A stretch of DNA of 64,000 nucleotides from Gammaproteobacteria bacterium (GTDB taxonomy: Bacteria > Pseudomonadota > Gammaproteobacteria > Steroidobacterales > Foliamicaceae), in NCBI GenBank assembly GCA_028285945.1, contig JAPYNE010000010.1:1057-65056 (forward strand), written 5' to 3'. A program made the translations under genes and the position numbers. Under the pieces are notes generated by a model. That model made no database searches and was not told where the DNA came from. It worked only from the letters and a program-made list of their open reading frames with translations. Numbering within the stretch: position 1 is the first letter of the stretch; every line of letters starts with the position of its first letter. Below are positions 8,688-40,511 of the stretch, in pieces.

Positions 8688-9566
8688 TCAGGGGAGGTAT
8701 TGGAGCCAGTCGTGTTCGGGGGCGCCGCAGGCGATGAATGGCGGGTTTTTGGTGGATAGCTTGCGGTAGCGGAGAGGCTGGCCCTGAAAATCGATCACCG
8801 CGCCGCCGGCGCATTCCAGCACCGCTTGGCCGGCGGCGGTGTCCCATTCGGAGGTGGGAAGCATGCGCGGATAGACATCCGCCTCGCCGCACGCGATCAG
8901 GCAAAACTTCAAGGAGCTGGACATGGCCCGCTGCCGCGACGCGCCCAAGGCGCCCACGTAGCGATCGTAGAGTTCGACCTCGGAGTCGGCATGCGAACGG
9001 CTGCACAGCACCCGCAGCGGACTTGAGGGCGGCCGGCGAACGCCAATCCTCTCGGCAGGGGCCAATCCGGGACGGCAACGGAAGGCGCCGCCGCCTTCGC
9101 GGGCAAAGTACATTTCCTCCTTGGCTGGCGCGTACACCACGCCGAGCACCGGCCGGTCCGCCTGAATCAGCGCAATGTTGACGGTGAATTCCTCGCCCCC
9201 GCGCACGAACTCCTTGGTTCCGTCGAGCGGATCCACCAGCCAGTGCCGCGGCCAATTCGACCGCTGCCCGCCGTTCGGAGCGTCGCCTGATTCCTCCGAC
9301 AGCACCGGCATGGCGGGCTTAAGCTGCCCAAGCCCTGCCGCGATGTGCTCGTGCGCGGCGCGGTCCGCAGCGGTGACGGGGCTGCTGTCGGATTTGTAAT
9401 CCACCTCGATGCCCTCTTTCCGCCATAAGCGCAGTGCGAGTTGGCCCGCTTCCCGGGCCAACTCGCACGCCGGGCGGATCAATGCGGCCAGATCGGGAAT
9501 CTCGCTGGCCTGCATGCGTGGGCTGCCCGGCTTCCGCAGTGGTTGAGCGGCCTTGGCGGTCATCAC
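8688..9566 (-). CDS. cysQ: 3'(2'),5'-bisphosphate nucleotidase
   Basis: Inositol-monophosphatase-family motifs PVLSEESG, WLVDPLDGTKEF and WDTAAG. Collinear with E. coli CysQ from memory. Start is uncertain (GTG 9566, ATG 9563 or ATG 9515). Confidence 0.85.
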   Translation of the reverse strand: MMTAKAAQPLRKPGSPRMQASEIPDLAALIRPACELAREAGQLALRLWRKEGIEVDYKSDSSPVTAADRAAHEHIAAGLGQLKPAMPVLSEESGDAPNGGQRSNWPRHWLVDPLDGTKEFVRGGEEFTVNIALIQADRPVLGVVYAPAKEEMYFAREGGGAFRCRPGLAPAERIGVRRPPSSPLRVLCSRSHADSEVELYDRYVGALGASRQRAMSSSLKFCLIACGEADVYPRMLPTSEWDTAAGQAVLECAGGAVIDFQGQPLRYRKLSTKNPPFIACGAPEHDWLQYLP

Positions 9567-9574
9567 TGACTAAA

Positions 9575-9754
9575 TTACTTGAACCAAGCCGGAGGCTTTG
9601 GTGTGCCTGTAGGCCCACACACGAATTTAACGTTCTTGCCGTATTGGGCTTGAATCATTTTCTTCGCGTCGGAAGGGTTGCCGGCGGTAGTTGCAACGCA
9701 TACCGGAGTAGCGGTTCCAGGTACCCGTATCTTGGCGTAGTGCTTCTTTGCCAT
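9575..9754 (-). CDS. Small hypothetical protein (59 aa)
   Basis: AGGAGA lies 6 nt upstream of the ATG at 9754 (MAKKHYAKIRVPG...). Lys/Pro-rich with two Cys. I recognise no family. Confidence 0.4.
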   Translation of the reverse strand: MAKKHYAKIRVPGTATPVCVATTAGNPSDAKKMIQAQYGKNVKFVCGPTGTPKPPAWFK

Positions 9755-10023
9755 TCTGGTTCTCCTCATTTTGTTGTTGGCGCTTTCTTCCCGCCGAGCG
9801 GCAGGCTTAAGCGGCTATTGGCGATGCGGCCCTGATGTCCTCGATCAGGGCCATTTCCTCAGGCAAGCAGGAGCTTCAGCACTCCGCCGCTTGAGTTCAC
9901 CATGCATGATATGGAGTCAATGCGACAAAATGCGTCGCCTGAAAACTGCCGCATGGGTGGCCAGAAAAAGGCGCTGCGCCTCGAAGCGGAAGCGGCGAAT
10001 ATCAGGCTTTTCAACGCAGCCGG

Positions 10024-10665
10024 TCAGGTGTTGCCGGGAGGAAGCCAGAGGTCGGCGAGGCTGAATGTGATGGCATCGAAGGGGGGCAAGGATGCATCGG
10101 CATCGCCAACCAGCTTGCGTAGCAGGGCGTAGCGGCGACCGCGCAAAGCGAAAGCGGCCAGCGAGCGGGCTTTAGGATCGACAAGCCACAGGTGCGCCAC
10201 GCCTTCGCGGGCGTAGATTTGCTGCTTTGGGCCTTCATCCAAGGCCCGGGTGGACGGCGAAAGCACCTCGCATACCCAATCCGGCGGCTGCGAGAAATAG
10301 GGCGTGTCGGCAAGTTCAGGCATATTCTCCCGGCGCCAGCCCGACAGATCGGGCACCACGATGTCTTCGCTCAAATGCAGCTCGGGCTCGTCGAGAATCC
10401 ACCAGCCCCCGGGATCGCCTTGATCGGAATCGAAAGGGTCGCCGAGCCGCACGCCCAGCCTTGATGCGGCGCGCAAGTGCGGCGAAGCGGGCTTGGGACG
10501 GGTGTGGAGCGCGCCGCCCAGCACCTCGGCAACCCTATTGGGCGGCGCGTCGAGCACATCCTGGTAGGTGGCGCGCTTTTCCCCGTGTTTTGATTTTCGC
10601 GCACTCGGCGCGAATGCCTCCAAGCGGTCTGGCGCTTCTGGATAGTCGCTTGAATCGCTGGCCAT
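10024..10665 (-). CDS. Uma2 family (DUF820) endonuclease
   Basis: PDLSGWRRE...PDWVCEVLSPSTRALDEGPKQQIYAREGVAHLWLVDP is the canonical Uma2 PD-(D/E)XK motif. AAGGAG lies 9 nt upstream of the ATG at 10665. Confidence 0.85.
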   Translation of the reverse strand: MASDSSDYPEAPDRLEAFAPSARKSKHGEKRATYQDVLDAPPNRVAEVLGGALHTRPKPASPHLRAASRLGVRLGDPFDSDQGDPGGWWILDEPELHLSEDIVVPDLSGWRRENMPELADTPYFSQPPDWVCEVLSPSTRALDEGPKQQIYAREGVAHLWLVDPKARSLAAFALRGRRYALLRKLVGDADASLPPFDAITFSLADLWLPPGNT

Positions 10666-10871
10666 GAGATTCCACTCCTTGAAAAACCGGCTGCTGGTGC
10701 TGCGCATCGTAGCACACGGCGCAAAGCTAGCCCTTCGGCTGTCTGCGGAGCCATGCTCCGCCCGCCATCCTTGCTGCTTTCGCAATCCGCCCTCCCCGGG
10801 TGGTTCTGTGCTGAACAATGAAAACAATAGTGCGCTTGAAGAGACTTCAGGCGCACTATAATTCTCATTTC

Positions 10872-11204
10872 ATGCCCGATAAGCCCATCACCCGCTTGGC
10901 CGAGGAAGCGCTCGAACTGCTCGCCATGCGGATTCGTCTGCATCGTCGGCGTCTGTGCATGACCCAGCAAGAGCTGGCCGACCGCTTGGGCGTCACCCGC
11001 CGCACTGTGCGGCAAATCGAAAAGGGCGCGCCCTCGGTGGCCATCGGCCGTGTGCTGGAGGCGGCGGCGCTGACTGGCGTGGATTTGTTCGTGCCCGAAG
11101 CCACCACGCTCGCACCGCAAATCGACCACGCCCGCAATCAGCTGGCCTTGCTGCCGACATCGGTGCGCGGCGGTCCGGGAACGGATTTTGACCCCGGGTT
11201 TTAG
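10872..11204 (+). CDS. XRE-family HTH antitoxin (HipB-like)
   Basis: LCMTQQELADRLGVTRRTVRQIEKGAPSVAIGRVLEAA is an XRE HTH. It sits immediately upstream of, and overlapping, the HipA-like ORF. An alternative start is at 10818. Confidence 0.75.
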   Translation: MPDKPITRLAEEALELLAMRIRLHRRRLCMTQQELADRLGVTRRTVRQIEKGAPSVAIGRVLEAAALTGVDLFVPEATTLAPQIDHARNQLALLPTSVRGGPGTDFDPGF

Positions 11205-11217
11205 CAGTCCTGGCGGG

Positions 11218-12588
11218 ATGGATAGTCGGTCGAAAGCGGCGGGCCTTCCGCCACGGGCCGCCAAGGGTGCGTATGTTTGGATTTGGCTGCCCGAGCAGGC
11301 TTCACCCGTGCCGGTCGGTCGCATCGTCAAAACGGGTTCACGCTATGGCTTCGCGTACGGCGCCGCCTACCTTCAGCGTCCTGATGCGATTTCCATATAT
11401 ACGCCCGAGCTGCCGCTGAAAGATGGTCCGCAGCTGCCGCGGCCCCCGCTGGCGCTGGCCTCGGCGTTGCGCGATGCGATGCCGGATGCTTGGGGGCGGC
11501 GGGTCATCGCCTACGACATGCGGCTTGAGCGGGCGGCCAGGAAAGGTGGCGCGCAAGCCGCTTGGGGGGCCGCCGACTCGCTTGATGAAATCGACGAGCT
11601 GGCCTTCATGCTCCGCTCCGGCTCCAACCGCTTCGGAGCGCTGGATTTTCAGTGCTCGGCCGAGCACTACATACCGCGAGAGGCTGAGCCAACGCCGCTC
11701 GCGCATCTGGCGAGCGCGGCGGAGCGGGTCGATCGCGGCCTGCCTATGGCGCCCGATCTGGCCGCCTGCCTGCTGCACGCCACATCGATTGGCGGGGCGA
11801 TGCCTAAGGCGCAGATTCGCAGCGAAGACGCGCAGCACATCGCCAAGTTCGGGCGGGCCGACTCGCATGTCGATGCCTTCAATCCGGTCAAGGCCGAGTA
11901 TGTGGCAATGCGTCTGGCGTTCGAGGCCGGCCTCGATGTTTCGCGAGTGCGCCTCGATAGCGCGATGGACACCGATGTTCTGCTGGTGGAGCGGTTCGAC
12001 CGGCCCGGCTCCTCAAATGAGATGGATCACGGCGAGCGCCGGATGGCGTTATCGGCGCTGACCCTGCTAGGTTTGGATGAAATGCTTGCGCGCTATGCAA
12101 GTTACGAGGATTTCGCCGAAATTCTGCGCGTACGCGGTGCCGGATCCGCCAAGACGACGCTGGCCGAGCTGTTCGGCCGCATGGCCTTCAATGTGCTGGT
12201 TGGCAATACTGACGACCACGCCCGCAATCACGCCTGCTTTTGGGATGGCGGGCGGTTGGTGCTAGCGCCCGCCTACGACATCGCTCCGCAGAACCGCGTG
12301 GGCCGGGAAGCCTCTCAGGCAATGCTGGTTTGCGGGCAGGACCGGCGAGCGCGACTGGCGACCTGCTTGGATGCCGCGCCGAAGTTCCTGCTGTCCAATA
12401 AGCAGGCCCTGTCCATCATGGAGAAGCAAATCGGCGTTATCGCCCGGCGTTTCGACGCGGTATGCGAAGAAGCTCAGGTCAGCGCTGCGGACCGCCGCCA
12501 TCTGATGGGAAGGCAATTCCTGAACGAACTGGCGTTCGACGGCCTGGAAGCGGAACTGAGCGTCGCGTCGTCTCGTCTCCCAATCTAA
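11218..12588 (+). CDS. HipA-family serine/threonine kinase toxin
   Basis: Catalytic loop GNTDDHARNHACFWDG plus LAPAYDI (HipA_C). N-terminal coupling domain VPVGRIV..YGFAYGAAYL. Start is uncertain (TTG 11188 or ATG 11218). Confidence 0.85.
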   Translation: MDSRSKAAGLPPRAAKGAYVWIWLPEQASPVPVGRIVKTGSRYGFAYGAAYLQRPDAISIYTPELPLKDGPQLPRPPLALASALRDAMPDAWGRRVIAYDMRLERAARKGGAQAAWGAADSLDEIDELAFMLRSGSNRFGALDFQCSAEHYIPREAEPTPLAHLASAAERVDRGLPMAPDLAACLLHATSIGGAMPKAQIRSEDAQHIAKFGRADSHVDAFNPVKAEYVAMRLAFEAGLDVSRVRLDSAMDTDVLLVERFDRPGSSNEMDHGERRMALSALTLLGLDEMLARYASYEDFAEILRVRGAGSAKTTLAELFGRMAFNVLVGNTDDHARNHACFWDGGRLVLAPAYDIAPQNRVGREASQAMLVCGQDRRARLATCLDAAPKFLLSNKQALSIMEKQIGVIARRFDAVCEEAQVSAADRRHLMGRQFLNELAFDGLEAELSVASSRLPI

Positions 12589-12623: not shown

Positions 12624-13151
12624 CTATTGACTAACCAATAGGCCATATAGTCTGCTAACTCCTTTTCTGCGGCGATCCTGATGGTTGTAGAACCCTTCGA
12701 CAACGAGGTCACGTGCATTCCTGGTGCCTTGCTTGTTTCGAATATCGTTGTTTTTCTGATATCCCATCGTTATAAACATTTGTTCTACATGGTTAATTGA
12801 AGCATGGCCATCTTTATTGGAGGGGCTTGACATGCGGCGCTTGTCCGGTGTCATCCGCACTAAGAAATACATCATTGGCGTTCCTTTGCTGATTTCTAGT
12901 GCTTCGTGATACCTAACAATTTTGTGAGAAGTGAAGCATTCTTTGGAAAAACTCTGGTTCTTCGCCTTGCCAACATACCAAGGCTTTTCTTGGGAGTTTT
13001 TCTCAATTGAAAAAACGTACACCCCGCAAGCGCCTTCCAAACCTGCATCAGCACTATTCCAAAATTTCTCAATGTCTTTTTTGTCAATCCTTCTCTTAAA
13101 TTCTCCCTCTTGCAAGGGAATTTCATAGGGACCGTGAATTTTGTAATACAT
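12624..13151 (-). CDS. Hypothetical low-GC protein with a GIY-YIG-like motif
   Basis: GACGVYVFSIEKNSQEKPWYVGKA is a GxY...YxG arrangement, followed by HVEQMFI (candidate catalytic Glu). AAGGAG plus a 6-nt spacer precedes the ATG. It lies 84 nt downstream of the AAA+ gene on the same strand. GC is low (22/60 and 27/60 on two counted lines). The nuclease assignment is inference. Confidence 0.55.
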   Translation of the reverse strand: MYYKIHGPYEIPLQEGEFKRRIDKKDIEKFWNSADAGLEGACGVYVFSIEKNSQEKPWYVGKAKNQSFSKECFTSHKIVRYHEALEISKGTPMMYFLVRMTPDKRRMSSPSNKDGHASINHVEQMFITMGYQKNNDIRNKQGTRNARDLVVEGFYNHQDRRRKGVSRLYGLLVSQ

Positions 13152-13235
13152 TTTTTTCTCCTTGTTTATTTCAGCGGGTGGAGCGCACCGAACGGGATGC
13201 GCCCGTGAGGGTTGAAGATATAGGGGGGGGGCAAG

Positions 13236-15395
13236 TCAATGCACGAAGCCGATGGCGCGGGGTTGGTTGGGTTTGGCTTCGCACTCGGCTTTGAGGAGGG
13301 TGTAGAGGGCGGACGGGTTGTCGAGCTGGCCTAGGATTTCGGCTTTCTGGCGGGCTACTGCGAAGTCGCCGGGGGTTAGGGTTTGCAGCGAGCTCAAAGC
13401 CGCGGGAGGCGGCAGGTCGAACCAGGCGCGGAACATGGCGTTGGCGCGGCTCGCATCCATGTAGCCCACGCTGATTTTGAAGACGAAGCGGCGCAGGGTG
13501 GCCGGGTCGAGCTTCTCGATCAGGTTGGTGGTGCAGGCGAACGGCAGCGGGTGACGCTCCATCCAAGTGAGCATTTCGTTGACTTGGCTGATTTCCCAGT
13601 TGCGCTGCGCGCCGCTGCGGTCGGCCAGCAGCGAGTCGGCTTCGTCGAACACTAAAAAGGAGCCGTCGTCGGCTGCTTCGCGGAACGCCCGGGCGATGTT
13701 CTTCTCGGTTTGGCCCACCCACATGCTCATCAGGTCCGAGGCGCGCTTCTGGGTAACCTCCAGGCCCAGCCGGTCGGCCAGATAGCGGATCCAAGCACTC
13801 TTCCCGGTGCCAGGCGGACCTTGAAGGCACAGCGAGAAGCGCTGCTTGCCGGTGGCGCACAGCCGGTCGGCAAGCGCTTCCAAGTCCTCCTCCGAACGCA
13901 TAAACGCTGGGTTGAAGCCCTTTGGAACGCCCTGACAGGCCTTCTCGCAACCCAGCAGCCGGGACAGGCTTTGCACGCCGCGGCGCACGGCGCCTAAGTC
14001 GCCATCGCGCAGCAAAGCCACGGCGGAGACGGCCCCGGCGGCCACGCCCGGCGTGGCATCGAATTCGTAGGCCAGCTCACGGGCATCCTCCGGGCTCGCT
14101 TGGATGCCGTTGCGCTCAAGTTGGCGCGCCCAGATGCGCTGGCGAACCGAAGGCGGCGGCTGGCGCAATTCGATCGCGAACATCATCCGCCGCAAGATGG
14201 CGCGGTCGATGCTGCTTGCTTCGTTGACGGTCCACAGCGTGGGCGCGGGGTTTTCTTCCAGCAGGCGGTTCATAAACAGCCGCGATGGTGCCCGGGTGCG
14301 CCTGCGTGGCCCCGGAAAGCCGAAAAGGCTGAACGGCGAGGACGATCCCTGACTGAGCAGGTCGTCCATTTCGTCGAACAGGAGCATGGCGCCGGCTTCC
14401 CGCCGCAGCAGGCTCTGCCCCAGCTTGAGGTCTGCCAGACGCTCGCTGCGCGAAGGCTCGTCGCCGGTCTCGTCCGTTTCGCCCACGCTGAACAGCGCAA
14501 CGCCCAAGCGGGCCGCCAAGGTGCGGGCGAACTCCGTCTTGCCGGTGCCGGGCGGCCCGTACAGCAGCACGTTAACGCCTTTGGCGCGCTTGCTGAGGGC
14601 GCCGCGAACGATGCCCTCCACATCGGCGCGCCGCTGTCCCAGATGGTCGAAGTCCTGCCATTGAAGTTCGGCTTGCGCGGGGGCGCCCAGCAACAGCGGC
14701 AGCGGATCGGCTTGTTCATCGGGCGCCGAGCCCAAGCGGCGCAGTCGCGATGCCACGGACATGTCGCCATCATCGTCCACCGCCAGCAGGCCGGAGCGGA
14801 CCAGCGGCGCGTCAGGAGCGCAACGGGACAAAAGGGTGTTCCGGGAAATACCGAGCAGATCCGCGAACGCGGCGCTTTTCAGACTTTGGCCGCTGACACC
14901 CCGGCTGAAGCTTCCTGACTCGCTGCTGTACACATTGTCAAGCAGCGATTCCAGCGCCGGCTGGGTCTGGTAGCGCAGCAGCATTTCCACAATTTGCAAG
15001 TCCGTGTTTTCCAGGCGCGTAATATGAGCCAACTGCCGCAGCCGCAGCGCGGTCGCATCGGGCTTGATGGCTTGCTTTGCGTCGCTAGCCCGGCGCAATG
15101 CCGTGCCTAGGCGCTGCCAGACCTGCCGGCCGCTTTTTCCGCTATCCTCCTCCGCTTGTTCTGCGTGCGCCAAGCGCCGGCGGTTTGTCAATAGGTCTTC
15201 GCATTCTCCGGCGATTTCAGCGATAACTGCGGCGTGTATGCCGCCGCCGCGACCGGCAAGGCCAGCCTCCAGCACTTCCGCGTTTTCGGCCACCCATTCG
15301 GCCAGGGACGCGGCCTCCGGGCGGCGCCAGCGGATGCGGCTGGCGGCATTGGCGATCCATAAAAGGCCCAGGCGACTTTCGTAAGGCGTAAGCAT
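13236..15395 (-). CDS. Tandem AAA+ ATPase (two classical AAA modules) with a roughly 260-aa unassigned N-terminal region
   Basis: Module 1: VLLYGPPGTGKTEFARTLA with Walker B MLLFDEMDDL. Module 2: LCLQGPPGTGKSAWIRYLA with Walker B FLVFDEADSL, then TTN (sensor-1-like) and ATLRRF (Arg-finger region). GGAGA lies about 6 nt upstream of the ATG at 15395. Confidence 0.85.
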   Translation of the reverse strand: MLTPYESRLGLLWIANAASRIRWRRPEAASLAEWVAENAEVLEAGLAGRGGGIHAAVIAEIAGECEDLLTNRRRLAHAEQAEEDSGKSGRQVWQRLGTALRRASDAKQAIKPDATALRLRQLAHITRLENTDLQIVEMLLRYQTQPALESLLDNVYSSESGSFSRGVSGQSLKSAAFADLLGISRNTLLSRCAPDAPLVRSGLLAVDDDGDMSVASRLRRLGSAPDEQADPLPLLLGAPAQAELQWQDFDHLGQRRADVEGIVRGALSKRAKGVNVLLYGPPGTGKTEFARTLAARLGVALFSVGETDETGDEPSRSERLADLKLGQSLLRREAGAMLLFDEMDDLLSQGSSSPFSLFGFPGPRRRTRAPSRLFMNRLLEENPAPTLWTVNEASSIDRAILRRMMFAIELRQPPPSVRQRIWARQLERNGIQASPEDARELAYEFDATPGVAAGAVSAVALLRDGDLGAVRRGVQSLSRLLGCEKACQGVPKGFNPAFMRSEEDLEALADRLCATGKQRFSLCLQGPPGTGKSAWIRYLADRLGLEVTQKRASDLMSMWVGQTEKNIARAFREAADDGSFLVFDEADSLLADRSGAQRNWEISQVNEMLTWMERHPLPFACTTNLIEKLDPATLRRFVFKISVGYMDASRANAMFRAWFDLPPPAALSSLQTLTPGDFAVARQKAEILGQLDNPSALYTLLKAECEAKPNQPRAIGFVH

Positions 15396-15486
15396 GCATA
15401 TTCTCCGCGTCTTGGATTCGCTGTGCATGGTATGGGGTTAATACGACATAGTGCGTCGCATGAGAATTGCGGGATAGAATGGCGCC

Positions 15487-16506
15487 ATGCGAAAAGCCGT
15501 GGACACCGTGTTCCGCTACTTGGCGGTGCTGCAATGCGTGCCGGCCCATCCGGCGCGCAAAACCACCACGCGGATACTCGCCGAACTGCGCGAAAAAGAT
15601 CCCGAATTCAATGTGAGCGCCCGCTCCATGCAGCGCAGCTTGGAGCAGCTGTCCGCCCGCTTCCCCATCACTTGCGAAACCGTGGGCAGAACCAATCACT
15701 GGTACTGGATCGACAGCCACGCCATGACGCAACTGCCGGCCATGACCGAGCACACGGCCTTTGCCCTGCGCTTGGCCAACGAATACCTAAGGCCGCTCAT
15801 GCCGCCCGCCACGCTGCGGCTGCTGGACAGCTATTTCAACCACGCCAATCGCCTGCTGAAAGGCTCCGCCTTGGGCCGCTGGGCCAACCGCGCGCGGATC
15901 GTTGCTCGCGGCCCTTTGCTCACGCCGCCGCCGGTGAAAGAGGATGTGCAGCGCGCGGCCTACAACGCCCTGTTGAACGACCGCCTGTTGGAAATCAACT
16001 ACCGGAGCCGCTCGCAACAACGCTCGCAGCGGGTCGCGCTCAATCCGCTGGGCCTGGTTTTCCGCGAAACCGTGGCCTACCTAGTGGCCAGCGCGTGGCA
16101 CTACCCGGATGTGCGCCACTATGCGCTGCACCGCATGAGCAAGCCGCGGCTGCTGGATCAACCCGCCGGAACGCCGCCGGGATTCCGGCTGGCCAGCCAT
16201 ATCCGCGACGAGTTGCGGTTCTCCTATCCGCTGGCCAGCGGCAACATCCCGCTGCGCGCCGCCGTGTCGCCGGAAGTGGCCGAGCACCTCGCTGAACGCC
16301 GGCTGTCCGGCGACCAGCGCATTGCGCGCCATGCCGATGGGCGCATCGTAGTCGAGGCAAGCGTCGCCAACACGCAGGAGCTTCGCTGGTGGCTTTTGGG
16401 CTTCGGCAGCGCGGTGGAGGTTCTGAGCCCGGCCTCGCTGCGCGAGGAGTTCGCCGCTCAGTCCCGCGCCATGCAGGCGATGTACGAAACGGAAGCGCCG
16501 TCCTGA
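15487..16506 (+). CDS. HTH-WYL-WCX transcriptional regulator (YafY/BrxR/CapW-like)
   Basis: N-terminal wHTH: VFRYLAVLQCVPAHPARKTTTRILAEL...SARSMQRSLEQL. Central WYL-like region: LEINYRS....RVALNPLGLVFRETVAYLVASAWHYPDVRHYALHRM. C-terminal region: ELRWWLLGFGSAVEVLSPASLREE. Divergent from the AAA+ gene across 91 bp. Confidence 0.8.
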   Translation: MRKAVDTVFRYLAVLQCVPAHPARKTTTRILAELREKDPEFNVSARSMQRSLEQLSARFPITCETVGRTNHWYWIDSHAMTQLPAMTEHTAFALRLANEYLRPLMPPATLRLLDSYFNHANRLLKGSALGRWANRARIVARGPLLTPPPVKEDVQRAAYNALLNDRLLEINYRSRSQQRSQRVALNPLGLVFRETVAYLVASAWHYPDVRHYALHRMSKPRLLDQPAGTPPGFRLASHIRDELRFSYPLASGNIPLRAAVSPEVAEHLAERRLSGDQRIARHADGRIVVEASVANTQELRWWLLGFGSAVEVLSPASLREEFAAQSRAMQAMYETEAPS

Positions 16507-17707: not shown

Positions 17708-17784
<77 letters not shown>

Positions 17785-17899
17785 TCTAACTGATCGCAGA
17801 CCGCACTTGAAGGAGTGGCCGGGAGAGAGGATACGCTGTCTTTTGCGGGATTCTTGCGCGGAGGCTTTGCCCGCCTCCATTCCCGGGCCTCGCTCCCCC

Positions 17900-17975
17900 G
17901 GGGCTGTAGCTCAGCAGGGAGAGCATCTGCTTTGCAAGCAGAAGGTCGTCGGTTCGATCCCGATCAGCTCCACCA
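17900..17975 (+). tRNA. tRNA-Ala (anticodon UGC)
   Basis: ggggctgtagctcagcagggagagcatctgctttTGCaagcagaaggtcgtcggttcgatcccgatcagctccacca. It has the G3:U70 identity pair and CCA is encoded. Confidence 0.95.
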
Positions 17976-18163
17976 GATTCAATCGCGCGGCCTTGCCGCC
18001 GCGCGGCACTTTTAAAAACAGGATTGTTCCATTGCCAACAAAGGCGGAGTCAGCTCCCAATGGGCGGATTCCCGCCGGCAATGTTGAACTTGTGGGAACT
18101 GCATTCGCGTGGTTATTTCAAGCGCCCCGAACAGTCTCTAAACGGGAATGTTTCGGGTGACGT

Positions 18164-20657
<2,494 letters not shown>

Positions 20658-20712
20658 ACGTCACACCGAAGCATTCCCCAACGTTCAACGAGCAAAGCAT
20701 GGAACAATTCTG

Positions 20713-20744
20713 GGCGCGTCCTTAGGTCGAACTAAGGACGCGCC
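20713..20744 (+). other. Perfect 13-bp hairpin in the 23S-5S spacer (processing stem candidate)
   Basis: ggcgcgtccttag gtcgaa ctaaggacgcgcc, followed by atcttttt. Confidence 0.5.
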
Positions 20745-20751
20745 ATCTTTT

Positions 20752-20872
20752 TCGCCTGGTGGCAATAGCGGACGGGTCCCACCCGATTCCATTCCGAACT
20801 CGGAAGTGAAAACGTCCAGCGCCGATGGTAGTTCGGGGCCTCCCCGTGCGAGAGTAGGTCACCGCCAGGCAT
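20752..20872 (+). rRNA. rrf: 5S rRNA
   Basis: tcgcctggtggcaatagcgg...ccgaactcggaagtgaaaacg...gccgatggtagt...ccccgtgcgagagtaggtcaccgccaggcat is collinear with E. coli 5S from memory. Confidence 0.9.
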
Positions 20873-36920: not shown

Positions 36921-37270
36921 CCTTTGATCTTGCGCTTACGCATGTCGTGCCCTCGCCAGTCGGGAACCTGCGCGGCGAGGAGCGCCTTGAACAGCTTTCC
37001 GTGGTTGGGCACGCGCAAATGCAGCAACTCGTGCGCGATGACGAAATCCTGGAAGCCGGAAGGCTGGTCGGCGAGATCGGCAGCTAGCGTAACGGTCCCG
37101 GAAGTCGAGCAGGAGCCCCACTTGCGCGTCATGCGTTGAACGCGGATCAGCTTCGGCTGCACGTTCAGCCGCCGGGACCAGCGCTCCACGCGCCTCAGGA
37201 TGGCCTGCCGCTTTTTCTCAGGCCGATTCGCCGGCGCCGTCATCCAGCAGGATTCCCAGAATGCGCTCAA
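36899..37270 (-). CDS. Short DUF45/M48-family (YgjP-like) metallopeptidase
   Basis: [18 protein letters not shown]....[23 protein letters not shown] has the HExxH motif in the YgjP context. It overlaps the hsdR 3' end. At about 120 aa it is about half the usual length as I remember it. Confidence 0.7.
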
Positions 37271-40169
37271 CGATGCGGCTTCGTTCCGTGCCGTCCAGCA
37301 TCAGCAGCGGCAGGTATAAAGCCGCTCGGAGCCGCCTGTGCTCATCGGCGCTGACCGCCGCGTTAGGGAAGCGTTCCATCAGTTTTTCCGCTTCCTTGGC
37401 CAGTTCCAGCGCCGCCACGCCAGCCGTTCTCAGAGCGTGATCGTCCTTGAGAACCCAGTGGACCCCAAAGGCGCGCCGCGATAGCCCGCTCTCCTTCGCC
37501 GCGTTCATGGCCGCTTCCTTTTCCTCCGCGAGAACGGCCAGCATATCCATCGCTTCAAGCCCGGTTTGCTTGCGCTCCTGAAGATCCCGGATGATCCGCT
37601 CAGCGCGCTCCTTGAGCGGCAGCAGCACCGCGCCAAGTTCCGGCTCGCTGTCGATCTCCCGATTCAGCCCGCGAACCAAGTTGAACACCTTGGCCTCCTC
37701 CGATCCCTTTTTCTGTTGCAGCGCCTTGAGCGAAGCGACATCAAAAGTCGCCGTTTTCGGCGTCTCTCCTAATCCTTCCTGTGCCGCGCTCTCCTGCACC
37801 ATGCGGCGCGTCTTTTCGCCCAGATCCACTTCGTAGTTAACGCGGCCGGCGTAAGCGTTGCGCACGCTGGCGTACAGGCGCGCGAGCTGCTTGTAGGCGG
37901 GTATGTGATCGCGAAGATCGGGCGAGGGGGACAGAATTTCCCAAAGCGCCTCGATTTCCTTGTAGGCTTCAAAAAACGCCTTGCGGGGTTCCGGCTCCAG
38001 AAAGCGTCCGTAGATGATCTGCTCAAGTTGCTGATCCGCGCCAAGGCTTTCCTCCACGGTCAGATACTCTGTTTTCGCGTTTGCGAGCTTGTTGCGGAAA
38101 TCCCGGCACAGCGTATCGAGATCTTCGATCACGCCGCTCACGTCCGACGCATCGAAGGCCAGCGCCTTTTTCAGTTCGCGCAGAACGCCTACGAAATCCA
38201 CCACCAGTCCAATTTGCTTGCGATTGCCTTTCGCGTCCGAATGCGGACGGTTCACACGGGCGATGGCTTGCAGAAGCACATGGTCCCGCATCGGCTTGTC
38301 GAGGTACATGCAGTACAGCAGCGGCGCGTCGAAGCCCGTAAGCAGCTTGTCGGTCACGATGAGGATTTGCGGGTTCATTCCGGCCTTCTTGAACATCAGG
38401 CGGGTGTCAGCCTCCCGCTCCTCCGGCAGCTGAAGCGCCGCGACGAGCGGTCGATCAACAATGTCGGCATCGTTTCTCGTATAGACCGGCACGCTCCATT
38501 CCTTCGGCAGATACTTATCAAGCGCCTGCTTGTACTTGGCGCAAGCCTCCCGGTTGACGGCCACTAGGAAGGCCTTGTAGCCCCGCGGCGCCACGTTCTC
38601 CTGGAAGTGCTTGGCGACGAACGCGGCGACTTTATCGATTCGGTCGTCGGAAGTAAGAAAGGTCCGCAAGCTGACCGCCCGTTCAAGCACCTTGTTGAGT
38701 TCCTCCACATCCGTAATGCCTTCGGACTCGGCCATCTCGAAGAATTCCTTGTCCAGCCGCTCCGCCGGAACGGTCATTTCGCTTGGAGCCATCGTGTGCT
38801 GGATCGGCAAAGTCGTCTCGTCCCCGATCGATTCGGCGATCGGGTACTTGTCGAGATAGCCTGAATCGTCCTGGGCGCCGAATATCTTGAAGGTGCCCTC
38901 CCCATGTTGCGTCCGGGCGATCGGCGTGCCGGTGAATCCGATGATCGTGGCGTTGGGCACGGCCGCCATCAGATAGGTGCCCAGGTCCTTGGCCACCGAG
39001 CGGTGCGCCTCGTCGATGAATACATAGATGCTCTCGCGGGCATTGGCGCCCTTCTCCAATCCTTCGAACTTATGGATCATCGACAGAATCAGCCCGCGTT
39101 TGTCGGTTTTGAACAGATCCCGCAGCGCGTTCTTGCTTTTAGCGCGCCAGACCGGGATGTCCTGCTGCTGCATTTCGCCGAGCAGCCTCTCAACCCATCC
39201 GCTCAGTTGCCCCTCTAATTCGATGCGATCCACGACCACAAGGACGGTAGCGTTCAGGAACCGCTCCTTGCGCTCCAGGATCAGGCGCGCGGCGGTGAGC
39301 AGCGTGAAGGTCTTGCCGGAACCCTGCGTATGCCAGATAAGCCCTCGGTCCTTCGACGGCTCGGCGCAGCGGTCGATAATGCGATCAACAGCCCGGCGCT
39401 GATGCTGGCGAAGCACCGTCTTGCGCGTTTCACCGTCTTGCGCATAGAACAAAATCCATTCCCGGAGCGTCCGCAGAAATTCCGTCGGCTCGAAGAACGA
39501 CTGCACCGCGAACCGGTAGCTCTCCTCCGGCTGTTCCTTCCAGCGCGCCATGAATTGGCGCGAAACGTTCCAAGTGACGCCGTACCAGTAGTCGAGGAGA
39601 TGCGTAACGTTAAACAGTTGCGCCGAGGCGATCAGTTCCGGCGTCTCTTTCTCGTAGCGCCGCATCTGCCCAATGCCCTGTTTGATGGCATCCCTATCCG
39701 CCGGATTCTTGTGCTCCACGATGGCCACCGGAATGCCGTTGACGGCGAACACCACATCCGCCCTGTTCCCCTTGCGCGCCGGCGGCTTGATTTTCCACTC
39801 CCAAGTCGCATGAAGCGCGTTGGCCGATGGATTGTCGAAATCAACAAGCCGCACTCGCCGATGACGCTTCTCCGCTTCGTCGTGCCACTGCCGATTCCCC
39901 CGCAGCCAGTCGAGCATTTCGCGGTTGCCCTCGATCGTGGCCGGAACCGCTTCCAGTCTTTCCAGCACCGCTCGGATGGCGCTGGTCGTCATCCACGGAT
40001 TGAATTTGCCCAGCGCCTGCTCAACCTCGCCACGAAACAGCATCCCCGCCTCGCTGCCCCGCTTCTTCAGCGCCTGCTTTGGCGATAAAGGCTTCCAGCC
40101 GATCTCGGCGGCATGCCGCACCATCGGAAACTGCACGGAAACCGCCTCGCCGATCCTCAACTCATCCAC
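37218..40169 (-). CDS. hsdR: Type I restriction enzyme R subunit
   Basis: SF2 helicase motif [13 protein letters not shown] and motif [12 protein letters not shown]-terminal nuclease region [14 protein letters not shown]. Preferred start is the GTG at 40169, preceded by AGGAG plus a 6-nt spacer. The ORF is open up to 40364. Confidence 0.9.
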
Positions 40170-40511
40170 GGCGCGCTCCTGCCGTTCGGCACCGCTCGTG
40201 CCCGTCCAGACGCAGCCAATGCGAAAGCCCGACTCATGGAAGGGCCGGGTATCGATCGGCCATAGCTTCTTCGATCCGCCTCCGGATGAAGAGTTGAGGG
40301 CTTGGGAAGGCCAGTAAATCGAACGTTTGCCGGGCATTTGCGCCCGCCTCGCGATCCGGCGCACGCGTTGGCATGTGCTGAAATACCGGGTCGGCGCGTG
40401 CTATCATGGCCATCAAAGGTTCCCCCCCGATGACAAGAGTGCCAAGGGTGCTCTCTCCTGCAAAGGAGTAGTCGGGGGGGTCATTTTTTTGGTCGCATTG
40501 CTCATCGCTCA

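Follow-up and report, generated by a model that had tools for sequence, protein, structure and literature searches.

A tandem AAA+ ATPase gene with a predicted DriD-like WYL-WCX regulator, and an independent small gene beside it, in a gammaproteobacterial island

Proteins of the WYL family are known either as repressors of phage-defense operons or as activators of the damage response that are triggered by single-stranded DNA (ssDNA), and beyond a few model species their targets are mostly unknown. Described here is a locus in which a gene for such a protein stands back to back with that of a tandem AAA+ ATPase, the latter being followed by a small open reading frame (ORF) of 175 residues. The locus lies in 64,000 nucleotides of DNA from a gammaproteobacterium (GenBank assembly GCA_028285945.1, contig JAPYNE010000010.1, positions 1,057 to 65,056), and this whole stretch is referred to as the window. 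A first-pass annotation had taken the three genes as one defense module. From the analysis reported below, it appears (with a probability of roughly 0.6) that two unrelated things had been merged, namely a mobile, ssDNA-induced cassette with a p97-like unfoldase and an independent small mobile gene.

The closest described system is that of DriD from Caulobacter crescentus (PMC9186387, PMC13004042). The driD gene is located at a bidirectional promoter, and its product activates the divergent operon and not its own gene (PMC13004042). The published DriD site reads ATACGAC-N7-GTCGTAT (PMC13004042), and it is given as CGAC-N7-GTCG in a separate publication (PMC12392091). In the promoters activated by DriD, as known from cryo-electron microscopy, the site extends over the -35 position, its spacing to the -10 element being constant, and there is no recognizable -35 element (PMC13004042). 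The present locus resembles this system in that the C-terminal, WYL-WCX part of its regulator matches DriD structures with E-values of ~1e-12, and in that a bidirectional promoter lies between the regulator gene and the target gene. That promoter contains a near-identical site (ATACGAC-N7-GTCGCAT), again overlapping the -35 position, with a fixed spacing to the -10 element. The locus differs in its target, which is a tandem AAA+ ATPase rather than the unknown protein and the TonB-dependent transporter of the divergent Caulobacter operon. Further differences are that the N-terminal DNA-binding domain of the regulator is not detectably similar in sequence, that most relatives carry the WYL gene downstream of the ATPase gene in the same operon, and that the ATPase-WYL pair is mobile and multi-copy. 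The binding of ssDNA and the ensuing activation would hold here by analogy. The Caulobacter gene CCNA_01149, which is divergent from driD, was considered as a possible counterpart of the ATPase and was rejected; it is annotated as a TonB-dependent transporter.

Another point of comparison is provided by the WYL-type repressors BrxR and CapW, which belong to the BREX and CBASS systems, respectively (PMC9122589, PMC9122588). Shared with these are a WYL-WCX protein encoded beside an accessory operon, a setting in a toxin-antitoxin island, and a palindromic site within the promoter region. In contrast, the regulator in the window has no match to their structures at E<0.01, and its box is of the activator type in both sequence and geometry. 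The cargo is neither BREX nor CBASS, and the ATPase matches no complete component in PADLOC or NCBIfam. The ATPase of the IetAS system, called IetA or IteA, is reportedly an anti-phage protein and is said to have been described by Gao et al. in 2020. Its models, PADLOC IetA and NCBIfam NF042959, match the D2 module of the ATPase in the window (aa 518-658) with E-values of 1.2e-29 and 2.8e-30. IetA, however, contains a single AAA module in ~370 aa, as opposed to two modules and a 250-aa N-terminal domain, and there is no IetS-type protease adjacent to the ATPase. The NF042959 score of 105.7 bits, which arises from D2 only, compares with an equivalog cut-off of 510. Apart from this partial match, PADLOC 2.0 and NCBIfam 20 contain no model that covers the ATPase, and a search of the literature for a system of AAA and WYL proteins returned no description. 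The cassette is apparently undescribed, as the first-pass annotation had surmised in recognizing no named system. Judged from its sequence, it would be a unit of a DriD-type regulon whose conserved effector is new.

The ATPase-WYL pair and its promoter

The two genes of the cassette and the elements between them are located as follows.

15487-16506, plus strand: WYL-WCX regulator, 339 aa, with WYL at aa 157-221 (Pfam, 1.8e-13) and WCX at aa 255-329 (Pfam, 1.6e-19)
15441-15461, no strand assigned: DriD-type box ATACGAC-ATAGTGC-GTCGCAT in the 91-bp divergent region, a 13/14 half-site match to the DriD site
15427-15432, minus strand: -10-like hexamer TACCAT of the putative ATPase promoter, 10 nt past the box, assigned by sequence
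15401-15406, minus strand: Shine-Dalgarno site GGAGAA of the ATPase, invariant across six loci
13236-15395, minus strand: ATPase ORF, 719 aa, tandem classical AAA+ (type II) with the order N-terminal domain-D1-D2 (PF00004 twice)

All three ORFs are real genes as judged by their homologs. With a hidden Markov model built from neighboring WYL proteins, a WYL gene was found to adjoin the ATPase gene in ~62 of 82 loci, and this adjacency spans at least seven phyla. The association of a WYL gene with homologs of the ATPase, as anticipated by the first-pass annotation, was thereby borne out. Usually the WYL gene is positioned directly downstream of the ATPase gene on the same strand; it is divergent and upstream only in the clade of the window itself (L007-L010) and in L037. 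The ATPase family is large, with >1800 homologs (full-length at 50-85% identity) and at least 509 loci within species-representative genomes. Copies from different phyla are up to 89% identical (Latescibacterota versus Gemmatimonadota), and one genome contains three paralogs that are 80-85% identical. In RefSeq, the ATPase is annotated together with a WYL domain-containing protein on plasmids from cultured members of Fuscovulum, Pantoea, Diaphorobacter, and Sphingobium. The conserved unit is a tandem-AAA ATPase plus a WYL-WCX protein, forming a horizontally mobile two-gene cassette. Across the loci, no consistently present third gene was found beside the pair. Genes for PDDEXK_4, PDDEXK_1, RecB-like/RNase_H_2, DUF2779, MBL hydrolase, and ADP-ribosylglycohydrolase proteins each recur in just 4-8 loci, and HEPN and RtcB genes occur only sporadically. 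Phages as the main habitat of the cassette were considered and rejected, there being one full-length match in 50,697 phage records. Among the 2.9 million contigs of IMG/VR there are five relatives of the ATPase, three of which are on contigs of 460-560 kb that may not be viral.

The regulator gene begins 91 bp from the ATPase start on the opposite strand, just as the first-pass annotation had it, and the WYL and WCX assignments made there were likewise correct. The helix-turn-helix that it listed was matched by no model, and the DNA-binding domain at the N-terminus is a putative one. The PADLOC WYL model spans aa 40-318. The best matches in the Protein Data Bank (PDB) are the DriD entries 8tp8, 9pfq, 7tzv, and 7u02 (E-values of 8e-12 to 1.6e-12), followed by a PafC structure at 6e-5; no BrxR or CapW structure was matched at E<0.01, and aa 1-110 have no detectable sequence match in the PDB. 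By these comparisons the protein appears DriD-like, its nearest solved relative being the Caulobacter activator.

Across six orthologous loci, the 91-bp intergenic region is strongly conserved around the palindrome. Given a 17-nt spacer from the -10-like hexamer, the predicted -35 position falls within the box. Of 81 loci, 58 have an exact box of the form RCGWC-N7-GWCGY 30-110 nt 5' of the ATPase start codon (in most cases at -59 to -70), and the chance expectation calculated from the density of the box in the same loci is 0.72 loci. The loci come from Alpha- and Gammaproteobacteria, Nitrospirota, Acidobacteriota, Latescibacterota, Gemmatimonadota, and Binatia, and the finding is independent of the position of the WYL gene. 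Alignment of 59 promoters on the box yields AT[A/G]CG[A/T]C-CGnATnT-G[A/T]CG[C/T]A, then 10 nt, and then T-A-n-n-n-T. This -10 hexamer lies at a fixed distance from the box, with its first T present in 51, its A in all 59, and its last T in 57 of the 59 promoters. A -35 element is not recognizable in these promoters, and the box occupies its place. In sequence terms, the box and the promoter geometry of the ATPase appear to be those of the DriD activator.

Boxes of the same type were observed elsewhere. In four Latescibacterota loci (L076, L043, L083, and L061), 4-7 near-identical boxes (GCGACGCGATCTGTCGC) precede different genes within ~10 kb, and the genes behind them include a DnaB-like helicase and a small collagen-repeat-like gene that precedes the ATPase. 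This cluster looks like a compact multi-promoter regulon island. In the window, a second exact box (GCGACGCATTTTGTCGC) lies on the minus strand at 9922-9938. It belongs to a unit at 9575-9941 (minus strand), where a paralogous version of the ATPase promoter and leader comes after it, with a 64-aa ORF (9575-9769) next. The leader contains a perfect 9-bp hairpin (GGCCCTGAT...ATCAGGGCC). This unit is conserved in L010 (13313-13672) with 87% amino acid identity, and in L009 (9838-9920) the second box precedes instead a copy of the ATPase N-terminus in truncated form. The pattern has a third exact match, GCGACATCAAAAGTCGC at 37735-37751, which falls inside a 1048-aa ORF (37218-40364, minus strand) and is probably a chance occurrence.

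Architecture of the ATPase

The start codon of the ATPase was set by the Shine-Dalgarno site and by conservation at six orthologous loci. The N-terminal domain was delineated on the AlphaFold2 model, and the remaining elements are sequence motifs; all lie on the minus strand.

14640-15395, minus strand: N-terminal domain, aa 1-252
14535-14558, minus strand: D1 Walker A GPPGTGKT, aa 280-287
14361-14384, minus strand: D1 Walker B LLFDEMDD, aa 338-345
13797-13820, minus strand: D2 Walker A GPPGTGKS, aa 526-533
13713-13724, minus strand: D2 pore loop M-W-V-G
13632-13655, minus strand: D2 Walker B LVFDEADS, aa 581-588
13524-13538, minus strand: D2 sensor-1 ACTTN
13479-13496, minus strand: D2 LRRF arginines

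The first-pass annotation had described a 719-aa protein with two complete AAA modules, and both are present, each matching PF00004 and with the Walker motifs that it gave. The protein is a type II classical AAA+ ATPase, its two modules having Walker A and B motifs, sensor-1, and arginines, with a pore loop in D2 only. In D1 the Walker A and B motifs are kept and the aromatic pore loop is absent, the corresponding sequence being SVGE. The Walker A and B motifs of D2, its sensor-1 asparagine, its LRRF arginine pair, and its M-W-V-G pore loop are invariant across 25 homologs. The best sequence matches for D2 in the PDB are modules of Cdc48, p97, VAT, and AFG2 (E ~1e-20). Like the Cdc48/p97/VAT unfoldases, the protein contains two classical AAA modules, and D2 shares with them the aromatic-hydrophobic-Gly pore loop, the sensor-1 asparagine, and the arginine pair. 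It differs from them in that the similarity extends over only ~130 residues of D2, in that D1 is without an aromatic pore loop, and in that the N-terminal domain is helical and winged-helix-like rather than a double-psi barrel.

The N-terminal domain was modeled with AlphaFold2 as a helical bundle with a small winged-helix-like element at aa ~175-214, the predicted local distance difference test score (pLDDT) being 80.3. Within this element lies FADLLGISRNTLLSR (aa 177-191). The first-pass annotation had left a region of ~260 aa ahead of the AAA modules unassigned, and so it stays: the N-terminal ~250 aa match no family in Pfam or NCBIfam, and a Foldseek search of the domain model against the PDB returned no fold below E = 0.4. 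From its motifs we infer that the ATPase is a hexameric unfoldase in which the D2 ring would serve as the motor and the N-terminal domain in target selection.

The 175-residue ORF

The small ORF and the spacer that separates it from the ATPase gene are located as follows.

12624-13151, minus strand: small ORF, 175 aa, low in guanine-cytosine (GC) content, outside the cassette, with an AAGGAG site and 84 nt 3' of the ATPase gene
13152-13235, minus strand: ATPase-small ORF spacer, 84 nt, with the AAGGAG site and a GC hairpin (9 bp, no U tract)

The position of the ORF, its strand, its AAGGAG site, and the lack of a terminator ahead of it were all confirmed. In the 84-nt spacer there is no terminator-like site, the sole hairpin being the 9-bp GC stem without a U tract (z-score of 0.24). 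The low GC content remarked upon in the first-pass annotation was also substantiated, at 0.42 versus 0.64-0.65 in the flanks. The role assigned there to the ORF, that of the effector of the module, was not. In none of the 80 fetched ATPase loci does a small ORF stand beside the ATPase, the sole trace being a 47-aa fragment in L007, and in none of ten small-ORF loci does an ATPase stand beside the homolog; the co-occurrence that might have been anticipated for these two genes thus shows no conserved linkage. In L001, a close relative, a homolog of the small ORF is ~4 kb from the ATPase on the opposite strand, and the ATPase gene is followed by a 129-aa ORF and then by an inositol-phosphatase-family gene.

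The ten loci represent ten differing solitary contexts. These include a place beside HipBA and a RecB-like nuclease, one between an HNH and a Schlafen-like gene, one after two integrases and before an MmeI enzyme, one by an ankyrin protein and OLD-like ATPases, one between IS3 copies, one on a phage-like contig with a sheath gene (L105), and others amid plain metabolic genes. Copies of the gene resemble one another in DNA sequence only within the ORF, and the GC content is below that of the flanks in every host, which together point to a solitary, horizontally moving gene. A transposable unit was considered and rejected: a mobile-element structure was sought around the ORF, and DNA conservation ends at the ORF ends. 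The small ORF landed by chance downstream of the ATPase in the window and is independent of the cassette.

There are 38 close homologs of the small ORF at 56-79% identity, none of which is annotated. A profile search yielded 1335 representative clusters (50% identity), mostly of ~175 aa. Some ten members of the superfamily are ~380 aa in length and are tandem duplications of the domain. One member was observed as a fusion to a RAMA (restriction-enzyme/methylase-associated) domain. The motifs named in the first-pass annotation are present, with GVYVF at aa 43-47, YVGKA at aa 59-63, and HVEQ at aa 121-124; GVYVF and YVGKA are separated by 11 residues rather than by the 13 stated there. In 58 diverse members, G43, Y59, G61, E123, N134, and N139 are invariant, and Y45, P57, F68, and E71 are nearly so. 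The AlphaFold2 model (pLDDT of 67, with a core of ~80) displays the order strand-helix-hairpin-helix-helix-strand-helix.

The GIY-YIG nuclease core proposed for this ORF was not confirmed by Pfam, by PDB profiles, or by Foldseek. Pfam PF01541 found no match in 22 + 58 members, even at permissive thresholds. The ORF and its relatives match no family in Pfam, NCBIfam, PADLOC, or PHROGs, and neither sequence nor profile searches of the PDB with the ORF returned a match. Foldseek searches with the model gave nothing significant, the best E-values being 0.13 (PDB) and 0.012 (BFVD); note that several viral proteins labeled GIY-YIG are among the weak matches. By hhalign, the β-hairpin alone aligns to UvrC and I-TevI, with a probability of 37-40% and P = 3e-4 over 21-26 columns. 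When this alignment is extended by one residue past K70/K41, the nearly invariant E71 comes to lie at the position of the catalytic arginine of UvrC. A resemblance to the UvrC N-terminal domain and to I-TevI is suggested by a G-x-Y, 11-residue, Y-x-G-K-A putative hairpin, a later invariant glutamate and asparagine, and a predicted β-β-α-α-β-α order. The ORF differs from them in having a glutamate in place of the catalytic arginine and an extra strand and helix at the N-terminus. E123, N134, and N139 are invariant, yet no tool aligned them to the metal-binding glutamate or the asparagine of GIY-YIG proteins. On balance, sequence comparison slightly favors the prediction of a divergent GIY-YIG-like protein.

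Competing explanations and genomic setting

The reading preferred here may be set out as follows. By analogy with DriD, ssDNA arising from DNA damage, or from invading or replicating foreign DNA, would bind the WYL domain and activate the DriD-like protein. The activated protein would then bind the ATACGAC-N7-GTCGCAT box and recruit RNA polymerase, and the ATPase would be switched on. In the predicted hexamer, a protein substrate would be threaded through the D2 ring and unfolded, D1, without an aromatic pore loop, may have a role in assembly or regulation, and the helical, winged-helix-like N-terminal domain may select the substrate or bind DNA. The ATPase would be a segregase of the p97 type, responding to ssDNA by removing or unfolding a protein, in a conflict or in a damage response. 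The small ORF would be an independent, solitary mobile gene, probably for a divergent GIY-YIG-like nuclease, that may be read through at this locus. A more specific version can be offered only tentatively. It holds that this is a widely transferred and hitherto undescribed two-gene system whose sole effector, a p97-like unfoldase, is turned on directly by an ssDNA sensor. The unfoldase would be a bacterial segregase extracting or unfolding a DNA-bound or phage protein in the course of DNA damage or infection, and the system would also be the most conserved cis-target of the DriD family in at least seven phyla.

Several observations weigh against the preferred reading. In 23 of the 81 loci there is no exact box directly before the ATPase, and several of these have one before the preceding gene. 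Latescibacterota loci of this kind have 4-7 near-identical boxes in front of several genes, one of which is the gene immediately upstream of the ATPase. The box in the window is only 25 nt 5' of the WYL start codon, and from this position it could also repress or autoregulate the WYL gene. Since the N-terminal DNA-binding domain of the WYL protein has no detectable sequence similarity to the winged helix of DriD, its recognition of the box is deduced solely from their co-occurrence. The sequence of the ATPase reveals neither a substrate nor a partner nor an effector activity. The neighborhoods of the ATPase are heterogeneous and include housekeeping genes (FIST, GcvT, and MFS), so that any enrichment of defense genes appears modest. 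Finally, the small ORF may be co-expressed with the ATPase by read-through because there is no terminator between them; such read-through is no evidence of partnership.

The first-pass annotation had envisaged an anti-phage operon of three genes, with an ATPase sensor or motor and a GIY-YIG nuclease effector placed under the control of a WYL repressor. The same-strand arrangement with its 84-nt gap and no terminator would suit such an operon, as would the island setting with HipBA, VapBC, and Uma2, the invariant G-x-Y, Y-x-G, Glu, and Asn of the small-ORF superfamily, the alignment of its hairpin with UvrC (P = 3e-4), and the nucleases (PDDEXK_4, DUF2779, and RecB-like) that recur beside the pair elsewhere. 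The neighborhoods, however, speak against it. The two genes are adjacent in 0/80 ATPase loci and 0/10 small-ORF loci, the small ORF has a foreign GC content and DNA conservation does not extend beyond it, and in close relatives the place behind the ATPase is taken by a 129-aa ORF or an inositol-phosphatase-family gene. With no Pfam, PDB, or significant Foldseek support for a GIY-YIG fold, and with a DriD-like WYL protein in activator geometry, the three-gene operon is highly improbable. A repressor is also central to a different explanation, namely that the WYL protein acts in the manner of BrxR or CapW and that the ATPase is a toxic abortive-infection effector, which it silences until a phage infects; the box would then be its operator and not a site of activation. 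The shared winged helix-turn-helix-WYL-WCX architecture would accord with this, given that members of the family bind palindromes by defense operons and that CapW senses ssDNA (PMC9122588, PMC11662680). Being no more than 25 nt from the WYL start, the box could block the promoter of the WYL gene, and D2 resembles the anti-phage ATPase IetA. The assignment of the regulator as BrxR/CapW-like was nevertheless not upheld, inasmuch as DriD (at 1e-12) and PafC were matched and BrxR and CapW were not at E<0.01. The box has the DriD consensus sequence, and it stands in the -35 place, 10 nt before a conserved -10 and with no recognizable -35, which is the signature of a DriD-activated promoter. We regard the repressor explanation as unlikely, though less so than the three-gene operon.

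A further explanation accepts the activator and dispenses with immunity. The cassette would then be a DNA-damage repair or tolerance module in a DriD-like, SOS-independent regulon, and the ATPase would strip trapped or cross-linked proteins off damaged DNA or remodel repair complexes. The regulator and box are of the DriD type, and the regulons of DriD hold the repair and nuclease genes recJ, dnaG, and bapE (PMC13004042). RecB-like nucleases, DUF2779, DnaB-like helicase, RtcB, and ADP-ribosylglycohydrolase are found among the neighbors, and the Latescibacterota box precedes several genes, including that of the DnaB-like helicase. On the other hand, core repair genes do not typically show a patchy multi-copy spread, transfer between phyla, or plasmid carriage, and toxin-antitoxin, Abi, and DRT neighbors do occur. 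Nor are the two roles exclusive, since a WYL activator of the Moraxellaceae controls both damage-response and anti-phage genes (PMC12392091). A repair module devoid of any immunity role is accordingly possible and somewhat doubtful. Mobility, plasmid carriage, and the island context favor a role in conflict; the type of regulator and the repair-like neighbors favor damage tolerance; sequence alone cannot decide between immunity and damage tolerance.

What the preferred reading offers is a concrete and easily testable regulator-target pair, in that a DriD-type box and its geometry are conserved before one gene, and a candidate for a new type of effector, an unfoldase instead of a nuclease. Culturable sources of the cassette are at hand in the plasmids of Pantoea, Fuscovulum, Sphingobium, and Diaphorobacter, among them pPAT9B03 of Pantoea sp. 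At-9b (PAT9B_RS26030/35) and pRsa of Fuscovulum blasticum (B6K69_RS17550/55). A plausible-looking call of a three-gene system is corrected, and a large unannotated family of small proteins (1335 clusters) is flagged as solitary mobile genes.

The surroundings of the pair vary and abound in nuclease, toxin-antitoxin, and Abi genes, and some neighbors match PADLOC models for Abi, DRT, or PARIS or candidate models. An ADP-ribosylglycohydrolase gene directly follows the ATPase in L046, L069, and L083 and is near the ATPase-WYL pair in L094 (Fuscovulum pRsa). It is sometimes trailed by a gene for a PDDEXK_4 nuclease or a HEPN protein, and NADAR-domain genes also occur nearby. In L089 (Sphingobium p-A-Sy), L097 (Diaphorobacter), L071, L053, and L013, 2-3 WYL genes lie within 10 kb, and every one of them has a different nuclease-type gene as its partner (TM0106 RecB-like or DUF2779), which suggests that these loci are WYL-rich islands.

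In the window itself, the trio is flanked by HipB/HipA, Uma2, and a PIN toxin, all with clear Pfam matches. The first-pass annotation had placed it between HipBA and VapBC in an island with Uma2 nucleases; that description stands except that the ribbon-helix-helix antitoxin partner of the PIN toxin is just a weak Pfam match (E ~0.007-0.009, below the curated cut-offs). An inositol-monophosphatase-family gene follows the ATPase in L001, L007, and L010, either directly or behind the 129-aa ORF. In the window, where the region 8688-12588 was compared with these loci, ~3.5 kb containing the small ORF, HipBA, and Uma2 is interposed, and this difference shows that the island was recently rearranged. 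An rRNA operon at 17708-20870 comprises tRNA-Ile, tRNA-Ala, 23S, and 5S genes and is without a 16S gene; no small-subunit rRNA was found in the 64-kb window. The toxin-antitoxin/ATPase island lies directly upstream of tRNA-Ile, which is the usual place of 16S. The 23S match covers the full model (1-2925) within 2494 nt, and the gene therefore looks ~400 nt short.

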